A DNA stretch of 64,000 bases from positions 23,333 through 87,332 of the forward strand of contig JAUSEG010000005.1 in the NCBI GenBank assembly GCA_030650415.1. Direction: 5' to 3'. The notes beneath the pieces are model-generated. The model was not told the origin of the DNA, searched no databases, and worked only from the letters and a program-made list of their open reading frames with translations. The DNA comes from a bacterium. GTDB taxonomy: Bacteria; Patescibacteriota; Patescibacteriia; Patescibacteriales; GWC2-42-12. The translations under genes were made by a program, and so were the position numbers. This document shows positions 12,097-56,077 of the stretch, in pieces (positions within the stretch are counted from its first letter, which is position 1; every line of letters begins with the position of its first letter).

Positions 12097-12678
12097 TCAA
12101 GTATTTAAATTTATTTTTTCATCTTGGCTTAAAAGTCCTTTTAGGGCGTTCAAAGACCGATAAATTAAAATTCTAACATTGCCTCTTGATTTGTCTAAAA
12201 CCTCGGCGATTTCTTTAATGGAAAGTTCGTTGATAAAACGCAAAATTATTATTTCGCGATATTCGTCTTTCAACTCCGGTAATTTAGATTCTAAAACCAA
12301 GAGATCGGCTTTAAATTCCATGTCATAATGCGGACTCTGCTTTTCGTCGGCGACTTTAATTCCGTTTTCATCATCCAGACTAACGGTTTCTCGGCCCTTG
12401 GTTTTTCGGTAATGATCAATAATCAAATTTCTGGAAATTTTATAGAGCAGGGCCTTCAGCGTTTTATAATCCTTCAAATTATCTTTCAAAATATAATGCC
12501 AGGTCTTTAGAAACACGGCTGAACATAAATCCTCCGCCTCCTCGCGATTGCCTACCTTGAAATAAATAAATCGATACAGTTGATCAACATATAAATCATA
12601 AGCTCTAACAAAGGCATTTTTATCATTTTGCTTTATCTTATGCAGCAATAGTTTTTCTTCAATCTTGCCTATCTTCAT
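12097..12678 (-). CDS. RNA polymerase sigma factor, ECF/sigma-70 family
   Basis: Region 2 (YDLYVDQLYRFIYFKV..EAEDL..VFLK.W) and a region 4 HTH (EYREIIILRFINELSIKEIAEVLDKSRGNVRILIYRSLNALK). Confidence 0.85.
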   Translation of the reverse strand: MKIGKIEEKLLLHKIKQNDKNAFVRAYDLYVDQLYRFIYFKVGNREEAEDLCSAVFLKTWHYILKDNLKDYKTLKALLYKISRNLIIDHYRKTKGRETVSLDDENGIKVADEKQSPHYDMEFKADLLVLESKLPELKDEYREIIILRFINELSIKEIAEVLDKSRGNVRILIYRSLNALKGLLSQDEKINLNT

Positions 12679-12716
12679 TTAATTATACGTAAAAATTAGA
12701 GTATTGTTACAGTTTA

Positions 12717-12916
12717 CCCCGTGAAATAGCTTCGCACCCCGTTAAAACGGGGATTTCATGGGGTGAACCCCGTGAAATTGCTTCGCACCCCGTTAAAACG
12801 GGGATTTCATGGGGTGAACCCCGTGAAATTACTTCGCACCCCGTTAAAACGGGGATTTCATGGGGTGAACCCCGTGAAATTACTTCGCACCCCGTTAAAA
12901 CGGGGATTTCACGGGG
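12717..12916. repeat. Tandem array of four 51-bp type-2 hairpin units
   Basis: Units start at 12717, 12768, 12819 and 12870. Each unit is CCCCGTGAAATnnCTTCGCACCCCGTTAAAACGGGGATTTCA(T/C)GGGG(TGAA). There are no spacers. The array lies about 38 nt upstream of the sigma-factor ATG. Confidence 0.9.
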
Positions 12917-13792: not shown

Positions 13793-14227
13793 TAAATATT
13801 TATCACCCCTTAACCGGGGTTTTTTATTTGACAGCTACTAATAAATATTGCCCTGTGGATAAAAATTTGCTATAATAAAAACATAAACAAAACTTATCCC
13901 CACCTTTCGGAGGATAAACCCCAGGCTTATGTTTTGTTACTGCAGTCATTTTTTTCAACTAAATTTGAATGGGATTTTTATATAAAAATCGGCTGACTTT
14001 TGTTGTCGATTTTTTGTTTTCAAAAATAACTATTTATCAACCAATGCTGTAAAAAGTCGAACGCCCTTAAACCGGCGTACAGCATAAAACATTTGATAAA
14101 TTAAATTAATAATAAAATCTCCATGCCTAGGCATAGGCGCGTAGATAAATAAAAAAAGTAAAAATTAATATTCTGTTAGGCCTAAATATTAATTTTTATT
14201 AATTAAATTTAAGAAATTAAAAAGACT

Positions 14228-17350: not shown

Positions 17351-17456
17351 GGCCGTCGGAGGAATGTTGGTTTTGAGCGCATACGAAATTGTAGTATTTT
17401 TTAAAGAAAATGCCCAAATTTCGTCTAAGCGAAAAACCAACATTCCTCCGACGGCC
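17351..17456. repeat. Long hairpin element with conserved core (family also at 24681-24828)
   Basis: Perfect 24-bp arms GGCCGTCGGAGGAATGTTGGTTTT / AAAACCAACATTCCTCCGACGGCC. The inner core, GAGCGCATACGAAATTGT...AATGCCCAAATTTCGTCTAAGCG, is shared with the second copy. Confidence 0.8.
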
Positions 17457-18277: not shown

Positions 18278-18549
18278 AGCCGTTGCGCGGAATTGAACCG
18301 CGGACCTACTCCTTCATTTACACCTCTTTTTGTTAAACACATATAAGAGGATTAGACTGTATCTTAGGCATGTTCTATTACTAGAATTTAGCCTCCCTTG
18401 TCAGTCGTTCGAGCGCTTTTACGCGCTACGGTCTTAGCCTTGTGTCGGCCTTTAACCGTGATTCGAGATTCAATAGAAAATTTATTCTCTAAGGGGCAGG
18501 AGTCAAATGACCCACCATGGAGTTGCTCTACCAGCTGAGCTACAACGGC
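18278..18549 (-). tRNA. tRNA-Thr (GGT) interrupted between nt 36 and 37 by a 199-nt intron
   Basis: Exon 1 (18549-18514): GCCGTTGTAGCTCAGCTGGTAGAGCAACTCCATGGT. Exon 2 (18314-18278): AAGGAGTAGGTCCGCGGTTCAATTCCGCGCAACGGCT. Joined, they give a perfect 73-nt cloverleaf with 7/7 acceptor, 4/4 D, 5/5 anticodon and 5/5 T stems, G1-C72 and C2-G71. Confidence 0.8.
18315..18513 (-). ncRNA. Putative group I self-splicing intron in the tRNA-Thr anticodon loop
   Basis: The 5' exon ends in U and the intron ends in G (..GUAAAUG). The intron's 5' ACUCCU-GCC can pair with the 3' exon AGGAGU (P10) and the 5' exon GGU (P1 with a G-U wobble). A P9-like hairpin CCUCUU..AAGAGG and CCUAAG / CUAAAUUCUAG strings resemble tRNA group I introns. 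Confidence 0.65.
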
Positions 18550-24680: not shown

Positions 24681-24828
24681 AGCCTGATGAGGCCTTTTGC
24701 TTTTGAGCGCATACAAAATTGTTGCTATTTTTTAGAAAAATATTACAATTATGTAATAAATAAAAATATTTTTCTAAAAAATGCCCAAATTTTGTCTTAA
24801 GTGAAAAAGTAAAAGGCCTCATCAGGCT
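24681..24828. repeat. Long hairpin element with conserved core (second copy)
   Basis: Arms AGCCTGATGAGGCCTTTTGCTTTT / AAAAGTAAAAGGCCTCATCAGGCT. The core GAGCGCATACAAAATTGT...AATGCCCAAATTTTGTCTTAAGTG is near-identical to that of 17351-17456. Confidence 0.8.
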
Positions 24829-29805: not shown

Positions 29806-29893
29806 TGTCATTCCCGAAGCCGTAGGCTGTCGGGAATCCAGGGGCGCGCGGCATAAACATATTTTCTGGATTCCCGCCTGCGCGGGAATGACA
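29806..29893. repeat. Type-1 mosaic palindromic element
   Basis: TGTCATTCCCGAAGCC...GGGAATCCAGG...CTGGATTCCCGCCTGCGCGGGAATGACA. Confidence 0.85.
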
Positions 29894-29951
29894 AGAAAAA
29901 ATATTGCATCGCTCCCGAAAACTCTCAAAATTACCCGTAATGACAATGCAG

Positions 29952-37765: not shown

Positions 37766-37802
37766 AATATTGTATTATCAAGTAAAAATTTAATAAAAGT
37801 CT

Positions 37803-41874: not shown

Positions 41875-42456
41875 TTAGCCGCTCTTTCTTCTAAACATTT
41901 TTCCGACAAAGCCCTTGCTGCCGCCTTCGATTTTAGCATGTCCGCCCCGGCCTTCCATTCTCGGGTCAACTATAACCTTGCCTTCTTCCTGCATGGCCAG
42001 ATTTTTTTCTTTTTCCGGCTTTTCAGAATCCTTTATCTTAACGGCCGCGTCTTTTTTCGGCTGGGTTTCAAGTTTAATCGGCGCTTCCAGATTCTGTTTC
42101 TTCGAGGTTTTAACTCCCGAAGCCTTGATTTCTCCCAAGACTAAATTTATATGGCTGGTTCGTTTCTTAATCGGCGTGGCCCGGCCATGGGCTCTCGGCA
42201 TCCAGCGTTTTAAAGTTGGGCCTTCGCCGACGGTTATCTCTTTTATGAATAAATTGTCTTTGGCTAATTCAAAATTATGCTCGGCATTAGCTATAGCGGA
42301 CAAAACCAGCTTAGCTACCGGCCTGGCGGCTAATTTATTTATAAAATGCAATTGATCCAAAGCCTTGTCTACCGGCAACTTCTTAATAAGATTAGTTACT
42401 AAGCGCATTTTAATCGGTGACATTCTGATAAATTTTGCTTTAGCTTTAACTTCCAT
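41875..42456 (-). CDS. rplV: 50S ribosomal protein L22 with ~80-aa C-terminal extension
   Basis: AKFIRMSPIKMRLVTNLI and RWMPRAHGRATPIKKRTSHI. Confidence 0.9.
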   Translation of the reverse strand: MEVKAKAKFIRMSPIKMRLVTNLIKKLPVDKALDQLHFINKLAARPVAKLVLSAIANAEHNFELAKDNLFIKEITVGEGPTLKRWMPRAHGRATPIKKRTSHINLVLGEIKASGVKTSKKQNLEAPIKLETQPKKDAAVKIKDSEKPEKEKNLAMQEEGKVIVDPRMEGRGGHAKIEGGSKGFVGKMFRRKSG

Positions 42457-42603
42457 ACTTACTTTATTCTATCAAGTTAAAATTTAATGGCCGTAGAGTT
42501 CTACTCGCTATTAAATTTTAACTTGATACATTATATTTTTTGTTTATCCCCTTGAGGGGGAAAATATTAAAAACTTTTTCTAAAAAAGTTTTTAAAGTTT
42601 TAT
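42457..42603. repeat. Structured spacer element, copy 1 (rpsS-rplV); copy 2 at 54478-54638
   Basis: The two copies share an identical 41-nt core AAAATTTAATGGCCGTAGAGTTCTACTCGCTATTAAATTTT, plus ATCCCC..GGGGGAA and the palindrome AAAACTTTTTCTAAAAAAGTTTT. Confidence 0.85.
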
Positions 42604-42930
42604 TTATTTTCCAACTTTAGAAACCGAAGCTGGAGCGGCCGGAGCCACAGCTCCTTTAGCTTGGTCTTTAGCCATTTTGCCGCCGTGGCTGACAAACTTT
42701 CTGGTCGGTGAGAACTCGCCTAATTTATGGCCAACCATATTTTCAACAATAAATACCGGTGTATGTTGCTTGCCATTATGCACGCCGATGGTAAAACCTA
42801 CCATTTCCGGAGCAATTGTACAAGCTCTATCCCAAACTTTAATGATAGTCTTATCGCCGGGGCGCAAAGCTCTAAGCTTTTTCATCAATCTTTCGTTAAG
42901 GTATGGGCCTTTTTTTAAACTTCTTGTCAT
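42604..42930 (-). CDS. rpsS: 30S ribosomal protein S19
   Basis: [18 protein letters not shown] and [11 protein letters not shown]. Confidence 0.93.
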
Positions 42931-44525: not shown

Positions 44526-45275
44526 TTATTTATACCTTTCTTCTAGCTTCTCAACAACGGTTCTTGCAATAATTAAATTCTTATATTTCAACAGGTCTAC
44601 TATATTTATATTATTCATGTTAATCAGCAAAACGCCAGGTAAGTTTTTTGCCGAATTGGTTAATTTCTCATCAGTCTTTTCGACGATAATCAAGATACTG
44701 CGTTTTTTCGCTGATTTACCGGTTTTAGTTTTCTTTGGCTTGGCTTCAACTTGTCCGGTTAAATTCATGGCCTGCTTAACTTCAGCTGAACCGGAATTCA
44801 ATGGAGTAAAAATTTTATTTTCTAAATTAGCTAAAATCTGATTAAAAAATTTGGTTTTAAATTCCGTTATGGAAAATTTATCTAAAACGACTAAATGATC
44901 GCTGGCCAGTTTATCGGATAAAACCATAAGCATGGCGCCCTGCTTCATCTTTTTATTTATCCGCATTTTAAAATTCCGGTCGTTTCTCGGACCGAAGGTT
45001 ACGCCGCCACCCTTCCAAATCGGTGATCGGCTTGAACCGTGGCGCGCTCGGCCCGTGCCTTTTTGCGCCCAAGGTTTTTTACCGCCGCCCCTGACTTCGC
45101 TTCTGGTCTTAGTATGAGCGATAACTTTTCTCTCGTTGGCCATTTGCGTAACAACCGCCTGGTGCACTAGAGCTTCATTAACTTTCACGCCAAAAACCTT
45201 TGAAGAAAGTTCCATCTCTCCGGCAGCTTCCGCGTCTTGGTTGTAGATTTTTATTTTAAGGCTCATATTTTGCAT
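44526..45275 (-). CDS. rplD: 50S ribosomal protein L4
   Basis: GGGKKPWAQKGTGRARHGSSRSPIWKGGGVTFGP. The first track ATG (45281) lies in the repeat terminus, so the start is set to the next ATG. The exact start is uncertain. Confidence 0.88.
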   Translation of the reverse strand: MQNMSLKIKIYNQDAEAAGEMELSSKVFGVKVNEALVHQAVVTQMANERKVIAHTKTRSEVRGGGKKPWAQKGTGRARHGSSRSPIWKGGGVTFGPRNDRNFKMRINKKMKQGAMLMVLSDKLASDHLVVLDKFSITEFKTKFFNQILANLENKIFTPLNSGSAEVKQAMNLTGQVEAKPKKTKTGKSAKKRSILIIVEKTDEKLTNSAKNLPGVLLINMNNINIVDLLKYKNLIIARTVVEKLEERYK

Positions 45276-45392
45276 TGTCATTCCCGCGAAAGCGGGAATC
45301 CAGGAGGAAGCAGTATAAACATTGTTAATAATTTACCGTGTTTGTGCCTCTGCCTCCTGGATTCCCGACAGCCTGCGGCTTCGGGAATGACA
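45276..45392. repeat. Type-1 mosaic palindromic element (downstream flank of the inserted ORF)
   Basis: TGTCATTCCCGCGAAAGCGGGAATCCAGGAGGAAGCAGTATAAAC...TTTGTGCCTCTGCCTCCTGGATTCCCG...CGGGAATGACA. Confidence 0.85.
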
Positions 45393-45435
45393 AGATAAAA
45401 AATTGTTCGTTTTAATATTACTAATCACTAATCTT

Positions 45436-45479: not shown

Positions 45480-45794
45480 TTAGCCGATGGTCACGCAAGG
45501 AACGCCGCTACTTTCTGACTTAACCTTACCCTCCTTCTTCGACAATCTCTTGATGAAATTGGCAACCGCCTTGGCTATGCGTATTTGTTCCGCCTTGGCG
45601 CGGTATTCATCAGACTTACGCGCCCTTATTCTCGGATCACCGTAGGTCACCATCTCTGAATCTTCTTCATAGGCCACGGCCGCGGCTTCCAATTCTCTCA
45701 ACTCTTGCTTCAGCCTCCTGCAACGACCGGATAACCTAATGGCCGTTTGCTGCAACCACGCCTTGTCAATAACTACCATCGTTTGTGTTTTCAT
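45480..45794 (-). CDS. Hypothetical 104-aa protein inserted between rplC and rplD
   Basis: An ATG at 45794 is preceded by ACGGAGATCAAAC (GGAG Shine-Dalgarno). Visibly more G+C-rich than its neighbours. Predicted helical and charged (RELEAAAVAYEED..RAKAEQIRIAKAVANFIKRL). No motif recognised. Confidence 0.55.
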   Translation of the reverse strand: MKTQTMVVIDKAWLQQTAIRLSGRCRRLKQELRELEAAAVAYEEDSEMVTYGDPRIRARKSDEYRAKAEQIRIAKAVANFIKRLSKKEGKVKSESSGVPCVTIG

Positions 45795-45838
45795 GTTTGA
45801 TCTCCGTGTTTTTGTTTCTGTTGTTTTATTGTTTGATT

Positions 45839-46026
45839 TGTCATTCCCGCGAAAGCACTCTGTTTTCTTTCTCTGCGCCGAGGTCGGCACCGAGGAGCAA
45901 TCCAGGAGGAAGCAGTACAAACGATCCTTATCGTTTACTATATTTGTGCCTCTGCCTCCTGGATTCTCATGGCTACGCCAGATCTCGCGTAGCGATGACC
46001 GACAGGCTTCGCCTTCGGGAATGACA
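45839..46026. repeat. Type-1 mosaic palindromic element (upstream flank of the inserted ORF)
   Basis: Same orientation and same inner core (ATCCAGGAGGAAGCAGTACAAAC...TTTGTGCCTCTGCCTCCTGGATT) as 45276-45392, plus a GCTACGCCAGATCTCGCGTAGC module. Confidence 0.85.
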
Positions 46027-46034
46027 AAATAATA

Positions 46035-46850: not shown

Positions 46851-46875
46851 ATCTAATAAATTATTCTCTTTTTAC

Positions 46876-46955
46876 TGTCATTCCCGCGCAGGCGGGAATC
46901 CAAAAACGGATTTTTTACTTCTCACTCCTGGATTCCCGCCTTCGCGGGAATGACA
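46876..46955. repeat. Type-1 mosaic palindromic element
   Basis: TGTCATTCCCGCGCAGGCGGGAATCCA...CTGGATTCCCGCCTTCGCGGGAATGACA, in the 356-nt rpsJ-rplC spacer. Confidence 0.85.
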
Positions 46956-47206
46956 AGAGAAAAATATTTAATGGTTATTCAAAGCTCTAAATATAAAAAA
47001 ACCGGTCTTCAACAAACCAGTCCAAAACCGCTTTAACACGGTGGCTATTACAAATTATTTTCCAAAAAAGGAATTTAATTTTGACTCTTGGTTTGATTGA
47101 ATTTTACCTCGCTCTAAATATTAACTTTTATTCAAACACTTTCCCTAAAGGAGTTGTCTAAACAATCATTAATATAATATATAAAAATACTAACTAATAT
47201 ATTCTA

Positions 47207-47670: not shown

Positions 47671-47946
47671 TTAAGCGTGGTCCAGCTCCGAAAAAGCTTC
47701 CGCTCCGTTATGTAGTGGAAGAGAATAAAGCTCCGCTACTTTTTTTGCAAGCGAAATTGTCTCACCCGTCTGATTGGAGTAATCTTCTCTTTCGTTGCTA
47801 AATTGAGACTTTTTACTTAGCTGGTTACGGTCAAGCGCATAAGTTTTCAAAGCCCGGATAATAATATCCGCTTCCTCCATAGTGAGTTTTAATTCTCCTT
47901 TTTCTCTCTCAATCGGTGCTTTTTCTCCAAATTTTTGTTCTGGCAT
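47671..47946 (-). CDS. Hypothetical protein between tuf and rpsJ
   Basis: The track ORF starts at a TTG. The first ATG (47946) gives MPEQKFGEK.... No motif recognised. Confidence 0.35.
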   Translation of the reverse strand: MPEQKFGEKAPIEREKGELKLTMEEADIIIRALKTYALDRNQLSKKSQFSNEREDYSNQTGETISLAKKVAELYSLPLHNGAEAFSELDHA

Positions 47947-48038
47947 AAATTTATTTAACCGCAAATCTGCAAATTCACTACGAATAAAACAAACAGTATT
48001 CGTAATATTCGTAGCTGATTTGTAGATTTGTGGAATGT

Positions 48039-49226: not shown

Positions 49227-49244
49227 ATTTATTTTTCTACGGCT

Positions 49245-49268
49245 CCCCCACCAACTTGTAGGTGGGGG
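49245..49268. other. GC-rich hairpin immediately upstream of the tuf start
   Basis: CCCCCACC-AACTTGTA-GGTGGGGG. Same stem family as the terminators at 6484 and 16539, but on the minus strand no U-run follows it. Confidence 0.5.
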
Positions 49269-49367
49269 ATTTTTGCCTGATATTTATTAAAATAGGCTAC
49301 CAGCCGTCTTTATTATTTATTTAAATTAATTATTTTTTTGACAAATTTAGTTTGTGGATTACACTTG

Positions 49368-49949
49368 TTATACCCCCGCAGTAAGACGTTCCTTCATAAT
49401 TATCAAACTAGTCACTAATAGCTCTTCACTATTTACTAAATCAGTATTAAATATAATTTCCACATAATGTGGGGAGAGTTCCTTCCTTGTACAAAACAAT
49501 TCTCCTTCTCTGTAGGTCTGACTTGTTAATAATAAATTGTTGACTTGGGTAGTGTACCTAGAACTATTTATTTGAAAAATTCTACTATTTTTATCAATAT
49601 TAATTTCATAAACTTTCTCACTCAAAATTAACTTATCTTTTAAAAAAACTTCACCATTATTTTTAACAAAACTTCTTTGATACTCACCATTTTCTGCTCC
49701 ATCCAATTGCTTGAAACCAATGTCCTTAATCTTGCCCCAAGCTTCAAAAATACGACTGTCGCTTAATTTAATTTTTGTGCGACCCGCTGAGATTTGACTT
49801 CCATAAAAATACAAAATTTTTGCCCAATGGCGACTTTCTGGCTGATGCTTATTAAATAGAGACTTATCCTTGACGCGCCCAGAAATCTGTACGGTTAAAG
49901 AAATGCCAGCAATAATAACAATAATAATAAATGCAATTAATCCTGCCAT
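49368..49949 (-). CDS. Hypothetical membrane-anchored protein (very AT-rich)
   Basis: N-terminal TM segment MAGLIAFIIIVIIAGISLTV. The rest is N/K/I-rich with no recognised motif. Confidence 0.45.
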   Translation of the reverse strand: MAGLIAFIIIVIIAGISLTVQISGRVKDKSLFNKHQPESRHWAKILYFYGSQISAGRTKIKLSDSRIFEAWGKIKDIGFKQLDGAENGEYQRSFVKNNGEVFLKDKLILSEKVYEINIDKNSRIFQINSSRYTTQVNNLLLTSQTYREGELFCTRKELSPHYVEIIFNTDLVNSEELLVTSLIIMKERLTAGV

Positions 49950-49986: not shown

Positions 49987-50403
49987 TTAAAACGCCAAGT
50001 CTTCCAGGTATTGCCGGTCTTCTTCTATTATTTCCTCGGCGTTGATTTTTCTCTTTGAAGGAATCGACCAGCTCTTATTGAATTTCCTGATCATTTTCTC
50101 CCGCGCCTCTTCATGCTCTTCGCGGCCTTCCTTCTTCGGCAGTTCGGCCAAATGATCCAGGTCCGTGTCCAGGTCGTTATCTAAATTCTGCTCGCTTTTC
50201 CAAATTGCAATATCACGATTTATTTTATCAAGTAATTCATCTTCTGTCAATCCGCGGACTTCGCTCTTGCCTAAAACCAGATTTTCATAATCTTTTAGCG
50301 CCAAAACCACAAAAGTATTGTCTGGTTTAGAGCTATCAAAAATAATCAGCCGATCGCCGGTTTTCTTGACTAAATTAATGGCTTTTTGCAATTGATCATG
50401 CAT
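49987..50403 (-). CDS. Hypothetical acidic protein; N-terminus weakly Phd/YefM-antitoxin-like
   Basis: VKKTGDRLIIFDSSKPDNTFVVLALKDYENLV resembles the beta-beta-alpha core of YefM-type antitoxins. The C-terminus is acidic and charged. The resemblance is by eye only. Confidence 0.4.
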   Translation of the reverse strand: MHDQLQKAINLVKKTGDRLIIFDSSKPDNTFVVLALKDYENLVLGKSEVRGLTEDELLDKINRDIAIWKSEQNLDNDLDTDLDHLAELPKKEGREEHEEAREKMIRKFNKSWSIPSKRKINAEEIIEEDRQYLEDLAF

Positions 50404-50477: not shown

Positions 50478-50664
50478 TGTCATTGCGAGGAATCCTATTT
50501 CATTTTGTCATCCCCGCGCAGGCGGGGATCCAGGTTAAAAACGAAAAAATTTCGGTTTACTGAAATAATGGCAAAACAAAATGTCCGTGTCGCTGAACTC
50601 TGGATTCCGGCTCGCCTTCGGCTTAAAGGCCGGAATGACAAAAAGACGGTCGCTCGCAATGACA
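50478..50664. repeat. Nested type-1 elements (one copy inside another)
   Basis: Outer TGTCATTGCGAGG...GTCGCTCGCAATGACA. Inner TGTCATCCCCGCGCAGGCGGGGATCCAGG...CTGGATTCCGGC...GGCCGGAATGACA. Confidence 0.85.
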
Positions 50665-52787: not shown

Positions 52788-52798
52788 AATTTAATATT

Positions 52799-52862
52799 TG
52801 TCATTCCCGCGCAGGCGGGAATCCATTTCCTCTGTCATTGCGGCCTCCGAGCCGCAATCCAG
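52799..52862. repeat. Two left-hand type-1 termini in tandem
   Basis: TGTCATTCCCGCGCAGGCGGGAATCCA followed by TGTCATTGCGGCCTCCGAGCCGCAATCCAG. Confidence 0.75.
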
Positions 52863-52908: not shown

Positions 52909-53958
52909 TCAATTTGTAAATTTGAATGTTGCTAAGATTTGCTTTTGTAAATCATTATCTTCATCAATATAATATAAATCAGCTGGGCATGAACCAAAAC
53001 TAATTACAAGGGTTTTATCGCTAACTGCAGTCTTAACTATTGTCGCCAAGCAACCAGCATCGCCCATCTTATACTTATAGCCAGCATTATTACCGACTTT
53101 TATTGTTTCAAATTTTTCAATTTTTCCATACATATCTTCAATATTATTTGGATCTAATTTTTTATCTGTTAAAGTTAAAGATAATGTGCCACGTTTACTA
53201 TTAAAATAAACATAATTTTCTTCTTTTCCAGCAATACTAAAAACTGTACCGGGGTATTTAAATGAAACCCCGCTCAATTTACTATACTGCAACCATTGGC
53301 TATCTACGACTTTTGGTTTTACCCAATCTTCGTTGATTTTAAAAGTTTTCAGTATCTCCTGTGATATTTTATCATCCTTGAGAAAATTAATTAAAAATAC
53401 TGTTCCTAGTTTATTGGCAGTAAAAATAAAAGTTCTTTCTTTTTCTATTTGCCATCCCCCAGTCTGCCATTGGAAACTTCCTATTATATTAAAAGTAAAA
53501 GCATCTCTACCATCAACTTTTGTAGTAAGGAGGTTTGAAATAAATTTATTTTTAATATTTGGATTATTGTCATCTTTGTTAATCTGCCAAATTTCCTGTG
53601 CATATTCATCTATAGGTTGCTTTACTGCTTCCACGGTTAATACTTCAAAAGAGGAACGATTAACAGGAGTTTTATATTGATAGCCATATTTTTCATTATA
53701 ATAAATTTGCCAATCGTTTGTATCAACGACTTCGGGCTCTTCGGTCAGGTTTTTAGTAATAGCTTGATTATTTTTCTCAAAATTATCGTTAATTTTCTGC
53801 AAATTTTTTACTGCCTGATTTTCAATCTGCTTGCTTTGCTGAATTTGCCCTTGCCATTTTATTGTGCCAAAAGCAATCACGCCAATTACTAAAACAGCTA
53901 CTAGAATAGCTATTAATGCAAAACCTCTTTGTTTAAAAATTTCTTTGTTCGTTTTCAT
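52909..53958 (-). CDS. Hypothetical exported protein with pilin-like N-terminus
   Basis: KQRGFALIAILVAVLVIGVIAF resembles a prepilin leader (G/F cleavage site plus hydrophobic helix) but lacks Glu at +5. The remainder is N/K-rich with 2 Cys near the C-terminus. Confidence 0.45.
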   Translation of the reverse strand: MKTNKEIFKQRGFALIAILVAVLVIGVIAFGTIKWQGQIQQSKQIENQAVKNLQKINDNFEKNNQAITKNLTEEPEVVDTNDWQIYYNEKYGYQYKTPVNRSSFEVLTVEAVKQPIDEYAQEIWQINKDDNNPNIKNKFISNLLTTKVDGRDAFTFNIIGSFQWQTGGWQIEKERTFIFTANKLGTVFLINFLKDDKISQEILKTFKINEDWVKPKVVDSQWLQYSKLSGVSFKYPGTVFSIAGKEENYVYFNSKRGTLSLTLTDKKLDPNNIEDMYGKIEKFETIKVGNNAGYKYKMGDAGCLATIVKTAVSDKTLVISFGSCPADLYYIDEDNDLQKQILATFKFTN

Positions 53959-53972
53959 ACCTACTTCTCCCC

Positions 53973-54000
53973 CTGGATTCCCGCCTGCGCGGGAATGACA
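53973..54000. repeat. Right-hand half of a type-1 element
   Basis: CTGGATTCCCGCCTGCGCGGGAATGACA. Confidence 0.75.
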
Positions 54001-54009
54001 AAAGGTGTA

Positions 54010-54477
54010 TTATCTCGCGAAATGCGCGAAGGCTTTATTGGCTTCGGCCATGCGGTGAACTTCGGCGCGTTTTTTAACGGCCGCGCCCTCGCCTTTCGAA
54101 GCATCAATTATTTCATCAGCCAATTTCTCCGCCATGGGTTTTCCCCGCTTTGCTCTGACCGCGGTAATCAGCCAGCGACAGCCTAAAGTAAAACGGCGTT
54201 CACCTCTGACCTGAAAAGGAATCTGATAGTTAGCGCCGCCGACGCGTCGGCCGCGAATTTCCAATAAGGGACTCACCTGCTTTAAAGCTTTGTTAAAAAC
54301 ATGCCTCGGATCCTGCTTAGTTCTTTCTTTAATAATTTCAAAGCAAGTGTAGACGATTTTCTGCGCTACGGTTTTTTTGCCTCGCTCCATGATGTAATTA
54401 ATAAACTTAGCGATATCCGGATCGTTAAATTTTACATCAAACTGAATTTTTCTCTTGGTGACTGGTTTGCCTCTCAT
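54010..54477 (-). CDS. rpsG: 30S ribosomal protein S7
   Basis: RRVGGANYQIPFQVRGERR, AHFAR C-terminus and synteny. Confidence 0.93.
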   Translation of the reverse strand: MRGKPVTKRKIQFDVKFNDPDIAKFINYIMERGKKTVAQKIVYTCFEIIKERTKQDPRHVFNKALKQVSPLLEIRGRRVGGANYQIPFQVRGERRFTLGCRWLITAVRAKRGKPMAEKLADEIIDASKGEGAAVKKRAEVHRMAEANKAFAHFAR

Positions 54478-54638
54478 ACTTTATTATTATATTAAGTAAA
54501 AATTTAATGGCCGTAGAGTTCTACTCGCTATTAAATTTTTACTTGATTCATTATATTTTTTGAATATCCCGCTTGGCGGGAAAAATATTATTTATCCCCG
54601 GAGGGGGAAAACTTTTTCTAAAAAAGTTTTTAAGGTTG
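54478..54638. repeat. Structured spacer element, copy 2 (rpsL-rpsG)
   Basis: Carries the same 41-nt core and the AAAACTTTTTCTAAAAAAGTTTT palindrome as 42457-42603, plus an extra ATCCCGCTTGGCGGGAAAA hairpin. Confidence 0.85.
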
Positions 54639-55058
54639 TTATTTCTTAGGTCTTTTAGCGCCATAGCGGCTGCGGCTCTGCTTTCTGCCTTCTACGCCCT
54701 GGGTATCGTAAACGCCTCTGATGATTTTATATCTGACGCCCGGCAAATCCTTAGTCCTGCCGCCCTTTAATAAAACGATGGAGTGCTCTTGCAGGTTATG
54801 GCCTTCACCCGGAATATAGGCGGTAACTTCCATGCCGTTTGATAATCTGACGCGGGCGATTTTTCGTAAAGCCGAGTTCGGTTTTTTCGGCGTAGTAGTA
54901 GTAACTTTAACGCAAACTCCGCGTTTAAAAGGCGAACCCTTAGGCAATTCGGTTCTCTTCCGATGCAGAGTGTCCAGCGTTGATTGCAGCGCCGGTGATT
55001 TGGTTTTTGTCTTATTGGAATGTCTGCCCTTGCGGACCAGTTGATTAATAGTAGGCAT
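54639..55058 (-). CDS. rpsL: 30S ribosomal protein S12
   Basis: Start moved to [22 protein letters not shown] motif. Confidence 0.95.
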
Positions 55059-55110
55059 AGTAAATAAAAAGTAAAAAAACAAACCCGTATAGGCGGGATA
55101 TTGTAGAATT

Positions 55111-55856: not shown

Positions 55857-55997
55857 TGTCATTGCGAGCGACTGTCTTTTTTTGTCATTCCGGCATCCGC
55901 CAGCTGGCGGAGAGCCTGCCTGCTGGCAGGCGAAGCCGGAATCCATGATTGTGTACTCTGGCCAAATTTCTGGATCCCCGCCTTCGCGGGGATGACA
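55857..55997. repeat. Nested type-1 elements
   Basis: TGTCATTGCGAGCG, then TGTCATTCCGGCATCCGCCAGCTGGCGG...CTGCCTGCTGGCAGG...GCCGGAATCCA...CTGGATCCCCGCCTTCGCGGGGATGACA. Confidence 0.85.
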
Positions 55998-56077
55998 ATC
56001 AAATAAATTCTACCACGCCTTGCCTTTTATTTCAAAAGCTGATAATATAAATCGCATAATAATAAAATAAAATATAT

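Follow-up and report, generated by a model that had tools for sequence, protein, structure and literature searches.

Among described bacterial elements, the closest kind to the one reported here is the gene-proximal repeat such as Neisseria REP2 and Borrelia IR-A/B: units of 120–180 bp, present in tens of copies immediately upstream of open reading frames (ORFs), whose two stem-loops are internal and which lack inverted repeats at their termini (Delihas 2011, PMC3184786). Our element, called the module below, is ~110–160 bases long and occupies the rpsS–rplV and rpsL–rpsG spacers of a 64,000-nt stretch of Patescibacteriota DNA (contig JAUSEG010000005.1 of assembly GCA_030650415.1, positions 23,333 to 87,332 of the forward strand; this whole stretch is the window). 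It shares with REP2 and IR-A/B a multi-copy distribution, a fixed orientation immediately upstream of ORFs, two internal stem-loops and a unit without terminal inverted repeats; both behave as duplicated upstream-region or 5'-untranslated-region (5'-UTR) cassettes whose downstream genes form a coherent expression class. They have no sequence similarity, however. REP2 and IR-A/B contain a promoter, a ribosome-binding site and the ATG, whereas the module stops 9–28 nt before the ATG, lacks a Shine–Dalgarno (SD) sequence and is a doubtful promoter; REP2 serves contact-regulated virulence genes, the module core housekeeping genes inside the str, S10 and spc operons; and base-pair covariation is demonstrated for the module. 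Literature searches returned no description of it in Patescibacteria or the candidate phyla radiation (CPR).

[quoted passage not shown] In a MITE the inverted repeats terminate the unit as a whole, target sites are duplicated, copies run in both orientations and presence or absence is precise, whereas in the module only the inner hairpin is palindromic (17–19-bp arms), the whole unit has no matching termini, orientation is ~97% fixed and losses are ragged. A third comparison is with individual mRNAs protected by a hairpin. Stem-loops at the 5' terminus stabilise ompA and other mRNAs, the Bacillus subtilis thrS leader is reportedly cut just upstream of a hairpin that stabilises the mRNA 5' end, and cggR–gapA processing is a single-gene precedent for a cut upstream of a hairpin. 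The logic proposed below for the module is the same, namely a cut or start just 5' of a stable stem-loop that yields a long-lived mRNA; Escherichia coli ompA, thrS and cggR–gapA are single-gene features, whereas the module is a repeated family for which cleavage is a proposal, and one of its loci follows a thrS T-box. Finally, the ribosomal-protein (r-protein) leaders (S7/str, L4/S10, S8/spc, L10 RF00557) are likewise structured RNAs in or before r-protein operons. Each of these is dedicated to a single operon and imitates one protein's rRNA site, whereas the module is common to many unrelated genes and coexists with an L10 leader. We regard the module as a well-supported, undescribed cis element, which appears to organise core-machinery expression in an SD-less CPR lineage.

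Both window copies lie among minus-strand genes, rpsS (42604–42930), rplV (41875–42456), rpsL (54639–55082) and rpsG (54010–54477), identities that Pfam confirmed; because the surrounding genes are all on the minus strand, the modules are to be read as the reverse complement of the letters quoted in the sequence-only reading from which this analysis started. That reading had reported two identical stretches shared by the spacers. Its 41-nt core AAAATTTAATGGCCGTAGAGTTCTACTCGCTATTAAATTTT occurs exactly twice in 64 kb, at 42479–42519 and 54499–54539, with none expected from shuffles, and its 23-nt palindrome AAAACTTTTTCTAAAAAAGTTTT likewise exactly twice (42570–42592 and 54608–54630; none expected). 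It was also right that each copy ends just short of the next gene, 9–13 nt from the following ATG in both spacers. Aligned over their whole length, the spacers are 88% identical, and they fold at −43.1 (copy 1) and −41.9 kcal/mol (copy 2), with z = −8.3 and −5.7 against shuffles. In the outer part of the main stem, they differ by one compensatory change (U-A to A-U) and by one C-A mismatch in copy 2. Other particulars had to be revised: the A/T stem measures 18–19 bp instead of 10 bp, and the G/C hairpin, listed as a shared feature, is indeed present (one in copy 1, two in copy 2) but is an optional insertion rather than a fixed part.

On the coding strand, the upstream stop codon is followed after 3–6 nt by CTT(T)AAAAACTTTTTTAGAAAAAGTTTT, which is the A/U hairpin, then by one or two G/C mini-hairpins TCCCCnnnnGGGGATAAA, the box CAAAAAATATAAT and a G, the 59-nt main hairpin TATCAAGTTAAAATTTAAT-AGCGAGTAGAACTCTACGGCC-ATTAAATTTTAACTTGATA, an A/U-rich leader of 9–13 nt and the ATG. 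The window holds these parts as follows.

42457–42603, minus strand: copy 1, the full rpsS–rplV spacer; the module starts at 42597, 6 nt past the rpsS stop (42604–42606).
42567–42595, minus strand: copy 1 A/U hairpin predicted by folding, 13-bp stem and 3-nt loop, UUAAAAACUUUUU-UAG-AAAAAGUUUUUAA (−8.1 kcal/mol in isolation; four covarying pairs in the family).
42543–42561, minus strand: copy 1 nested G/C mini-hairpin UCCCCCUCAAGGGGA with a UAAA tail, an optional insertion.
42530–42542, minus strand: copy 1 linker or box CAAAAAATATAAT, −10-like, predicted single-stranded in RNA.
42467–42529, minus strand: copy 1 main hairpin, stem at ~42470–42528 with a 19-bp A/U-rich lower stem (covariance model R1, 92.5 bits; −26.1 kcal/mol, z = −9.4).
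42489–42509, minus strand: copy 1 apical core AGCGAGUAGAACUCUACGGCC.
42457–42469, minus strand: copy 1 A/U-rich unstructured leader without SD, abutting the rplV ATG (42454–42456).
54478–54638, minus strand: copy 2, the full rpsL–rpsG spacer; the module starts at 54635, 3 nt past the rpsL stop (54639–54641).
54609–54629, minus strand: copy 2 A/U hairpin predicted by folding, 9-bp stem.
54590–54608, minus strand: copy 2 first G/C mini-hairpin UCCCCCUCCGGGGA with UAAA, right behind the A/U hairpin.
54567–54581, minus strand: copy 2 second G/C mini-hairpin UCCCGCCAAGCGGGA, ahead of the A-rich box.
54550–54562, minus strand: copy 2 linker or box CAAAAAATATAAT.
54487–54549, minus strand: copy 2 main hairpin with the same apical core as copy 1 (covariance model R1, 85.3 bits).
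54478–54486, minus strand: copy 2 A/U-rich leader before the rpsG ATG (54475–54477).
37766–37802, minus strand: remnant of a deleted third copy in the rpsH–rplF spacer, module start AGACTTTT fused to 3' arm ATTAAATTTTTACTTGATA and leader.

The remnant retains just the first 8 nt and the 3' arm of the module, and a full module stands before rplF at the same site in L002, L012, L016, L020, L042, L048, L065, L093, L095 and L100. A search of the window with covariance model R1 found no further copy. Against Rfam 15 at gathering thresholds, the whole window matched only two tRNAs; a permissive search of 42400–42660 gave only sub-threshold chance matches, the best being CRISPR-DR37 on the G/C mini-hairpin (26.7 bits, threshold 40).

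The element is not limited to the two spacers in which it had been noticed. Scans of public data brought the family to at least 113 copies (101 unique) in related Patescibacteria metagenome-assembled genomes (MAGs) and metagenome contigs, besides the remnant in the window. A scan of species-representative genomes with a pattern covering the hairpin tip only gave 19 further copies in ~8 MAGs, and a scan of metagenome contigs, which required the box and inner arms and left the tip and outer stem free, added 87 loci. Both scans being pattern-based, the apparent invariance of the pattern positions and the identity of modules relative to coding sequences are inflated by ascertainment; orientation, context, the tip sequence (in the metagenome set) and the flanks (in the genome set) are free of this bias. 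The MAGs are labelled Patescibacteria, some being mislabelled Gammaproteobacteria, and carry up to eight copies per genome. Flanking r-protein genes are 70–88% identical in DNA between family loci and the window, which points to a fairly narrow clade of hosts; between such genomes the module itself is 86–100% identical, a figure inflated by ascertainment.

The main hairpin shows compensatory change. In an alignment of 86 distinct hairpin sequences (A2), we tested a structure with a lower stem of 18 bp, one unpaired A, two G-C pairs, an apical stem of 4 bp closed by a 3-nt loop, and a bulge of 4 nt on the 3' side. Cells were paired in 99.0% of cases, and nine pairs had changed on both sides (146 cells); the observed covariation was reached by none of 500 shuffles, and slid controls were only 24–52% paired. 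The apical stem covaries strongly, one of its pairs being A-U in 51 sequences and G-C in 30 and another U-A in 43 and C-G in 39, and copies recovered with the covariance model show compensated changes also in the inner stem AAATTTTAT/ATAAAATTT. The conserved asymmetric tip consists of an A·C mismatch, two G-C pairs, a 3' UACG bulge, the covarying 4-bp stem and an A-R-A triloop; across the alignment the apical G-NNN/NNN-C stem is 98% paired, and the bulge reads U-A-C-(G/U/A). This geometry displaces the GTAG/CTAC mini-hairpin first proposed as the cap, two of whose four pairs fail in 39 and 52 of the 86 sequences. ViennaRNA picks that pairing in the window sequence only because both tip pairings are possible there. 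Two familiar motifs were considered for the tip and dropped: a K-turn (there are no tandem G·A pairs) and a lambda boxB-like fold (the loop is a triloop, not a GNRA-like pentaloop).

By folding energy, the main hairpin is stable at about −26 kcal/mol (z of about −9) and leaves the start region unpaired, and a conserved CAAAAAATATAAN-G stretch precedes it. The A/U hairpin is weak (−8 to −10 kcal/mol); four of its pairs show double changes, although these represent few events and two alignment rows had an insert removed by hand.

Placement relative to genes is constrained. A co-oriented ATG lies within 30 nt downstream of the 3' arm in 92 of the 98 copies with a recognisable downstream ORF, most often at 11 nt. 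At the other end, 64 of 90 analysable copies start no more than 15 nt (usually 0–6) past the stop codon of a co-directional gene and so fill the whole intergenic space; those that do not mostly follow a G/C hairpin and T-run. Despite the palindromic arms, the asymmetric tip has the same orientation relative to box and gene in 111 of 113 copies. In the two exceptions (L009, 3825–3887; L101, 1356–1418), only the 21-nt tip is flipped between perfect inverted arms and the rest is normal, which looks like inversion by recombination or template switching between the arms. As for whole modules, a single one (L073) is turned round relative to its neighbours and another (L035) points towards a convergent rpsO.

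R-proteins make up about half of the 95 proteins encoded downstream, an approximately ten-fold enrichment: L6 (ten times), S5 (six), L25 (five), S7 and L10 (four each), L2 and L24 (three each), L18, L22 and L5 (two each) and singletons. The genes concerned are rplF, rpsE, rplY, rpsG, rplJ, rplB, rplX, rplR, rplV, rplE, rplP, rpsS, rplC and rpmJ. Further modules precede rpoB, tuf, secE, ndk, ATP synthase genes, ssb, thrS, glycosyltransferases, pilins and several membrane or unknown proteins, so that at least 25 different gene families stand downstream. This breadth tells against the r-protein operator that had been among the earlier suggestions. An operator could be an autoregulatory site for one r-protein (e.g. 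S7 in the rpsL–rpsG spacer) or, alternatively, a DNA site for a dimeric repressor. The E. coli rpsL–rpsG spacer is an S7 operator, and the module is palindromic with highly conserved inner arms. Yet the same sequence stands before all those unrelated families; changes in one half-site are compensated so as to keep pairing, which protein half-sites do not predict; and a true r-protein leader, that of L10, coexists upstream of the module. We consider an operator of either type highly improbable.

The earlier suggestion of an internal promoter deserves closer attention. The CAAAAAATATAAN box could serve as a −10 element without a −35, as in Mycoplasma, with transcription starting in the foot of the main hairpin, so that each gene would receive its own transcript with a 5' hairpin; the A/U hairpin would then end or insulate the upstream unit, and the module would correspond directly to Neisseria REP2. 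Promoters are known from both REP2 and Correia repeats (PMC3184786). In the module, a TATAAN box follows an A-tract at an invariant distance from the hairpin foot, and either register (TATAAN or TAANGT) would put the start ~7 nt downstream, within the 5' arm. The box also outlives the hairpin in deletion derivatives, ~16 copies come directly after a G/C hairpin and T-run, and in L004 and L014 the module lies upstream of a conserved tuf leader, where the window, devoid of a module, has only an A/T-rich stretch that matches a promoter weakly (TCCACA-18-AATAAT, 9/12).

The sequence of the box itself fits a promoter poorly. Its last base is unconstrained (TATAAT 33, TATAAC 32, TATAAG 27, TATAAA 9), and G(T/A)AT and the stem come next without exception. 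Sigma-70 promoters, by contrast, have −35 and −10 hexamers separated by 16–18 nt, with a conserved A at −11 and a highly conserved T at −7. No −35 element is seen, and one at a fixed distance is impossible because many copies have G/C hairpins of 17–20 nt immediately ahead of the A-tract. A promoter scan found no site of at least 10/12 in either window spacer, the best internal match being TTCAAA-18-TAAAAT (9/12), although canonical TTGACA-N16-18-TATAAT promoters exist in these genomes, e.g. TTGACA-N17-TATAAT at window 50468–50439. Covariation in the A/U hairpin suggests, moreover, that this hairpin is transcribed. No minus-strand terminator-like site was found in either spacer, where the G/C mini-hairpins are followed by AUAAA.

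Loci with an attenuator bear on the same question. Before rplJ in four genomes, a TTGACA-16 promoter lies 145–192 nt upstream (second hexamer TATTAT in three, TAAACT in L025), and the order is promoter, L10 leader with its own terminator stem and U-run, module, ATG; the leader matches RF00557 with 50.2 (L078) and 50.1 bits (L041) against a gathering score of 44, and with 35.7 bits in L018. Before thrS, the order is promoter, T-box (48 bits, E = 1e−7, with the AAATCGGGTGGAACCACGG motif visible), terminator, module, ATG. The secE copies have a conserved TTGACA-17-TAATAT promoter 73–74 nt upstream of the module. Our own early view, that the module carries a promoter because it follows terminators, was dropped once promoters and the L10 leader or T-box were found upstream of those terminators. 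A strong promoter in the module would bypass these attenuators and make them pointless. Since both attenuators are conserved, the simplest view is that the module belongs to the transcript. We infer that it is transcribed 5'-UTR at rplJ and thrS. A strong promoter within the module is unlikely, and a promoter cassette in general, weakened by the attenuator loci and the loose box, strikes us as doubtful, although it is the main rival of the reading that we favour.

These results favour, with a confidence that we would put at about even, a portable, orientation-specific intercistronic or 5'-UTR cassette that acts at the RNA level in cis ahead of highly expressed genes in a clade of Patescibacteria. 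An RNA-level role for a structured element, as the sequence-only reading had already supposed in general terms, gains support from the covariation, from the fixed orientation and position before start codons and from the location after promoters and attenuators. Transcription through the module, its cleavage, the stabilisation and any effect on translation are deduced, and the following scheme is correspondingly conditional. The module would be transcribed as an intercistronic spacer within operons or as the last part of the 5'-UTR at operon starts. It presents a weak A/U hairpin 0–6 nt past the upstream stop, often reinforced by nested G/C hairpins; a conserved A-rich linker, CAAAAAAUAUAAN-G, presumed single-stranded; and a very stable hairpin with a stem of ~19 bp, whose base lies ~9–17 nt before a start codon without SD. 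Cleavage within the linker or at its end, perhaps behind the invariant G of the hairpin foot, would leave the upstream RNA with 3' hairpins and let the downstream mRNA begin with a flush 5'-terminal hairpin. Such a hairpin may shield the mRNA from 5'-end-dependent decay while keeping the A/U-rich initiation region unpaired. In long operons, or downstream of attenuators in leaders, this would uncouple gene units and boost them. The tight spacing between hairpin and AUG, and the oriented, conserved tip, suggest that the hairpin is also recognised, be it by a protein or by the ribosome.

That last point could be taken further. No SD sequence was found in the 25–45 nt upstream of any of the 27 genes examined between 37803 and 57234; with A/U-rich leaders throughout, the organism appears to initiate without SD pairing. 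The module might then be an SD-independent ribosome-recruitment or translation-enhancer cassette, its tip bound by a ribosomal or ribosome-associated protein, which we judge unlikely overall. Its two hairpins separated by A/U-rich single strands would resemble the SD-less E. coli rpsA leader, and an SD-less CPR lineage might have copied the cassette before its most expressed genes as a shared, co-regulated initiation signal. A function in initiation would fit the spacing of 9–17 nt from hairpin foot to AUG, which puts a helix at the usual docking place of the SD–anti-SD duplex, and likewise a tip that keeps its orientation strictly and deletion derivatives that retain the 3' arm.

An RNase III site, one form of the processing site suggested earlier, would place the cut elsewhere than in the linker: the long, near-perfect duplex of the main hairpin would itself be cleaved to separate cistrons, in the manner of phage T7 intercistronic sites or Correia/NEMIS. 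RNase III cleaves T7 hairpins and transcribed Correia hairpins, and the module offers an uninterrupted duplex of ~21 bp, bulged asymmetrically close to the tip, in an intercistronic position within operons. However, the invariant juxtaposition with the A-rich box would have no explanation, nor would the strict orientation of the tip, as the enzyme mainly reads duplex; and a cut in the stem would strip the hairpin from the downstream mRNA, leaving the tight ATG spacing without a role. We think cleavage of this kind improbable. A text search of the Delihas 2011 review (PMC3184786) for RNase III gave no match.

Occupancy and decay of the sites bear on whether the module serves its host at all. 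The window has it before rplV and rpsG, and L012 before rplB, rpsS, rpsH and rplF; in L007, where the operon is otherwise compact, it stands only before rplB and rplP. Because occupancy differs between genomes in this way, sites must have been gained or lost on the time-scale of 15–30% coding divergence. The main hairpin has been lost, with the A/U hairpin and box kept, at rpsS–rplV in L012, before rpsE in L006 and before tuf in L003, and the rplC site of L003 retains the A/U hairpin alone. A search for a precise empty site with target-site duplication found only ragged deletion derivatives, with end points that differ from case to case; those at L012 rpsS–rplV, in L006 and L003 and at window 37766–37802 keep part of the 3' arm. 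The TA that flanks the hairpin on both sides belongs to the stem.

The module is composite as well. Counted with a loose pattern, 58 of the 101 unique copies have between one and three G/C mini-hairpins within 110 nt upstream of the box and 43 have none; many family members, such as L002 and L007, have none at the copy-1 position, where AATATTTTC directly joins AAAAAATATAA. These mini-hairpins always have one orientation and sit at three hot spots, namely the A/U hairpin's loop, the point directly behind that hairpin and the point directly ahead of the A-tract; in a few copies they sit within the tip (L060, L014) or in the leader. The units TCCCCnnnnGGGGATAAA are 17–20 nt long and, in the window, almost confined to the module (42543–42561, 54590–54608 and 54567–54581, plus 13799–13820); they are also found at many other loci, e.g. 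L005, L025 and L034.

A selfish palindromic repeat, MITE-like or akin to repetitive extragenic palindromic (REP) elements, would have no host function, and its orientation and position bias would reflect where insertion is tolerated. The variable occupancy just described (before rplV in the window, rpsS and rplB in L012, rplB and rplP in L007) is what such a repeat might show, and other hairpin repeat families abound in the host genome and in related ones, where they have invaded the same operons. The main hairpin has 17–19-bp inverted arms flanked by TA, smaller G/C hairpins nest within the module, and an assembly contig breaks within the hairpin. On the antisense strand, the tip reads GTAG followed by a 3–4-bp palindrome, much as REP elements, which go with a RAYT gene in the genome, have a GTAG 5' of a short G/C-rich palindrome, but that G sits in the covarying stem and the palindrome is tiny. 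The sequence-only reading had held that copies scattered at random and lacking structural covariation would make the element another MITE; copies are many, yet their placement and orientation are non-random and their pairs covary. Tolerated insertion also sits badly with ~97% of copies in one orientation relative to the next gene, a narrow distance to the ATG, the ten-fold preference for r-protein genes, orthologous sites occupied across 15–30% coding divergence with the module better conserved than the coding DNA (a contrast that ascertainment inflates), and ragged losses in place of precise excisions. None of the viral contigs scanned held a module copy. A purely selfish repeat is, in our view, improbable. 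An integron attC/VCR-like site was also considered and dropped, since the flanks are core r-protein operons, not cassettes, and the GTTRRRY-/RYYYAAC-like motifs lie in the wrong arms.

Several observations weigh against the transcribed, cleaved cassette that we favour. Among stem intermediates, G·U and A·C are equally common (13 versus 13), so the wobble test does not prove that the sense RNA, and not a palindrome in DNA, is under selection; template-switch correction that keeps up a palindrome at the DNA level could look like covariation. That several orthologous sites, among them the rplF site of the window, have lost the module by deletion indicates that it is dispensable. The box persists in the hairpin-less L012, L006 and L003, which suggests a role of its own beyond that of a cleavage linker, and the A/U hairpin is kept after terminators, where a 3'-protecting hairpin seems redundant.

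CPR bacteria, or Patescibacteria, are uncultured, with tiny genomes and few regulators, and almost nothing is known of how they control expression. If our reading is true, one cassette at about half of the r-protein units and at rpoB, tuf, secE and ATP synthase genes would be a simple means of co-ordinating and boosting the core machinery. The module splits the S10, spc and str operons, otherwise universally compact, into units. Its 63-nt RNA with a covariance model is a concrete, testable target and a possible marker of highly expressed genes in these genomes. There is also a practical side. L001, a 917-nt Logan contig (SRR13727527_418645) and the only public contig encoding an identical L22, begins midway through the main hairpin, 36 nt ahead of the gene, which indicates that the module breaks short-read assemblies inside r-protein operons; these operons are markers for CPR phylogeny and completeness estimates.

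Other features were seen in the window and in related genomes. A second repeat family, TGTCATTCCCGCG-nnn-CGCGGGAATCCAGGAGG and its complement, occurs in both orientations in spacers of the str and S10 operons and flanks hypothetical ORFs; we take it to resemble the neisserial dRS3-type ATTCCC-N8-GGGAAT repeats. The normally contiguous rpsG-fusA-tuf-rpsJ-rplC-rplD block contains five minus-strand ORFs without Pfam matches (349, 138, 193, 97 and 146 aa), and nearly all spacers of this operon are expanded to 30–360 nt, the operon of the relative L007 being compact.

45269–45400, 45832–46032, 46869–46963, 50499–50641, 52792–52825, 53973–54008, 55970–56005 and 29861–29901, both orientations: sites of the second repeat family.
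52909–53958, 49987–50403, 49368–49949, 47671–47964 and 45480–45920, minus strand: the five ORFs without Pfam matches.

The conserved 5' leader of tuf (window 49227–49320, minus strand; L004 4606–4698; also L014 and L003) has a long-range stem GACGGCUGG...(G/C hairpins)...CCGUC with variable internal hairpins. In the rpsH–rplF spacer of L007 (6081–6219), a different structured element of ~140 nt with the long-range stem GATTTGGGT...ACCCAAATC takes the place where other genomes carry the module. In a split tRNA-like gene at ~18285–18548 (minus strand), the acceptor, D and T arms are normal and the anticodon is probably GGU (Thr), but an insert of ~225 nt interrupts the anticodon loop; ARAGORN did not call the gene, and the insert had no Rfam match, including to group I introns. 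At 12665–12916, a tandem array repeats a 51-nt unit, ACCCCGTGAAAT..CACCCCGTTAAAACGGGGATTTCATGGGGTGA, which holds two nested inverted repeats; three copies are 96–100% identical to the reference and a degenerate fourth 64%. Lastly, a large hairpin repeat, GGCCGTCGGAGGAATGTTGGTTTT...AAAACCAACATTCCTCCGACGGCC, lies at 17359–17411 and 24689–24741, one copy just upstream of tRNA-Trp, and its loop motif AAAAAATAnnACAAT-N-GTATGCGC loosely resembles the module's AAAAAATATAAN-GTAT box.

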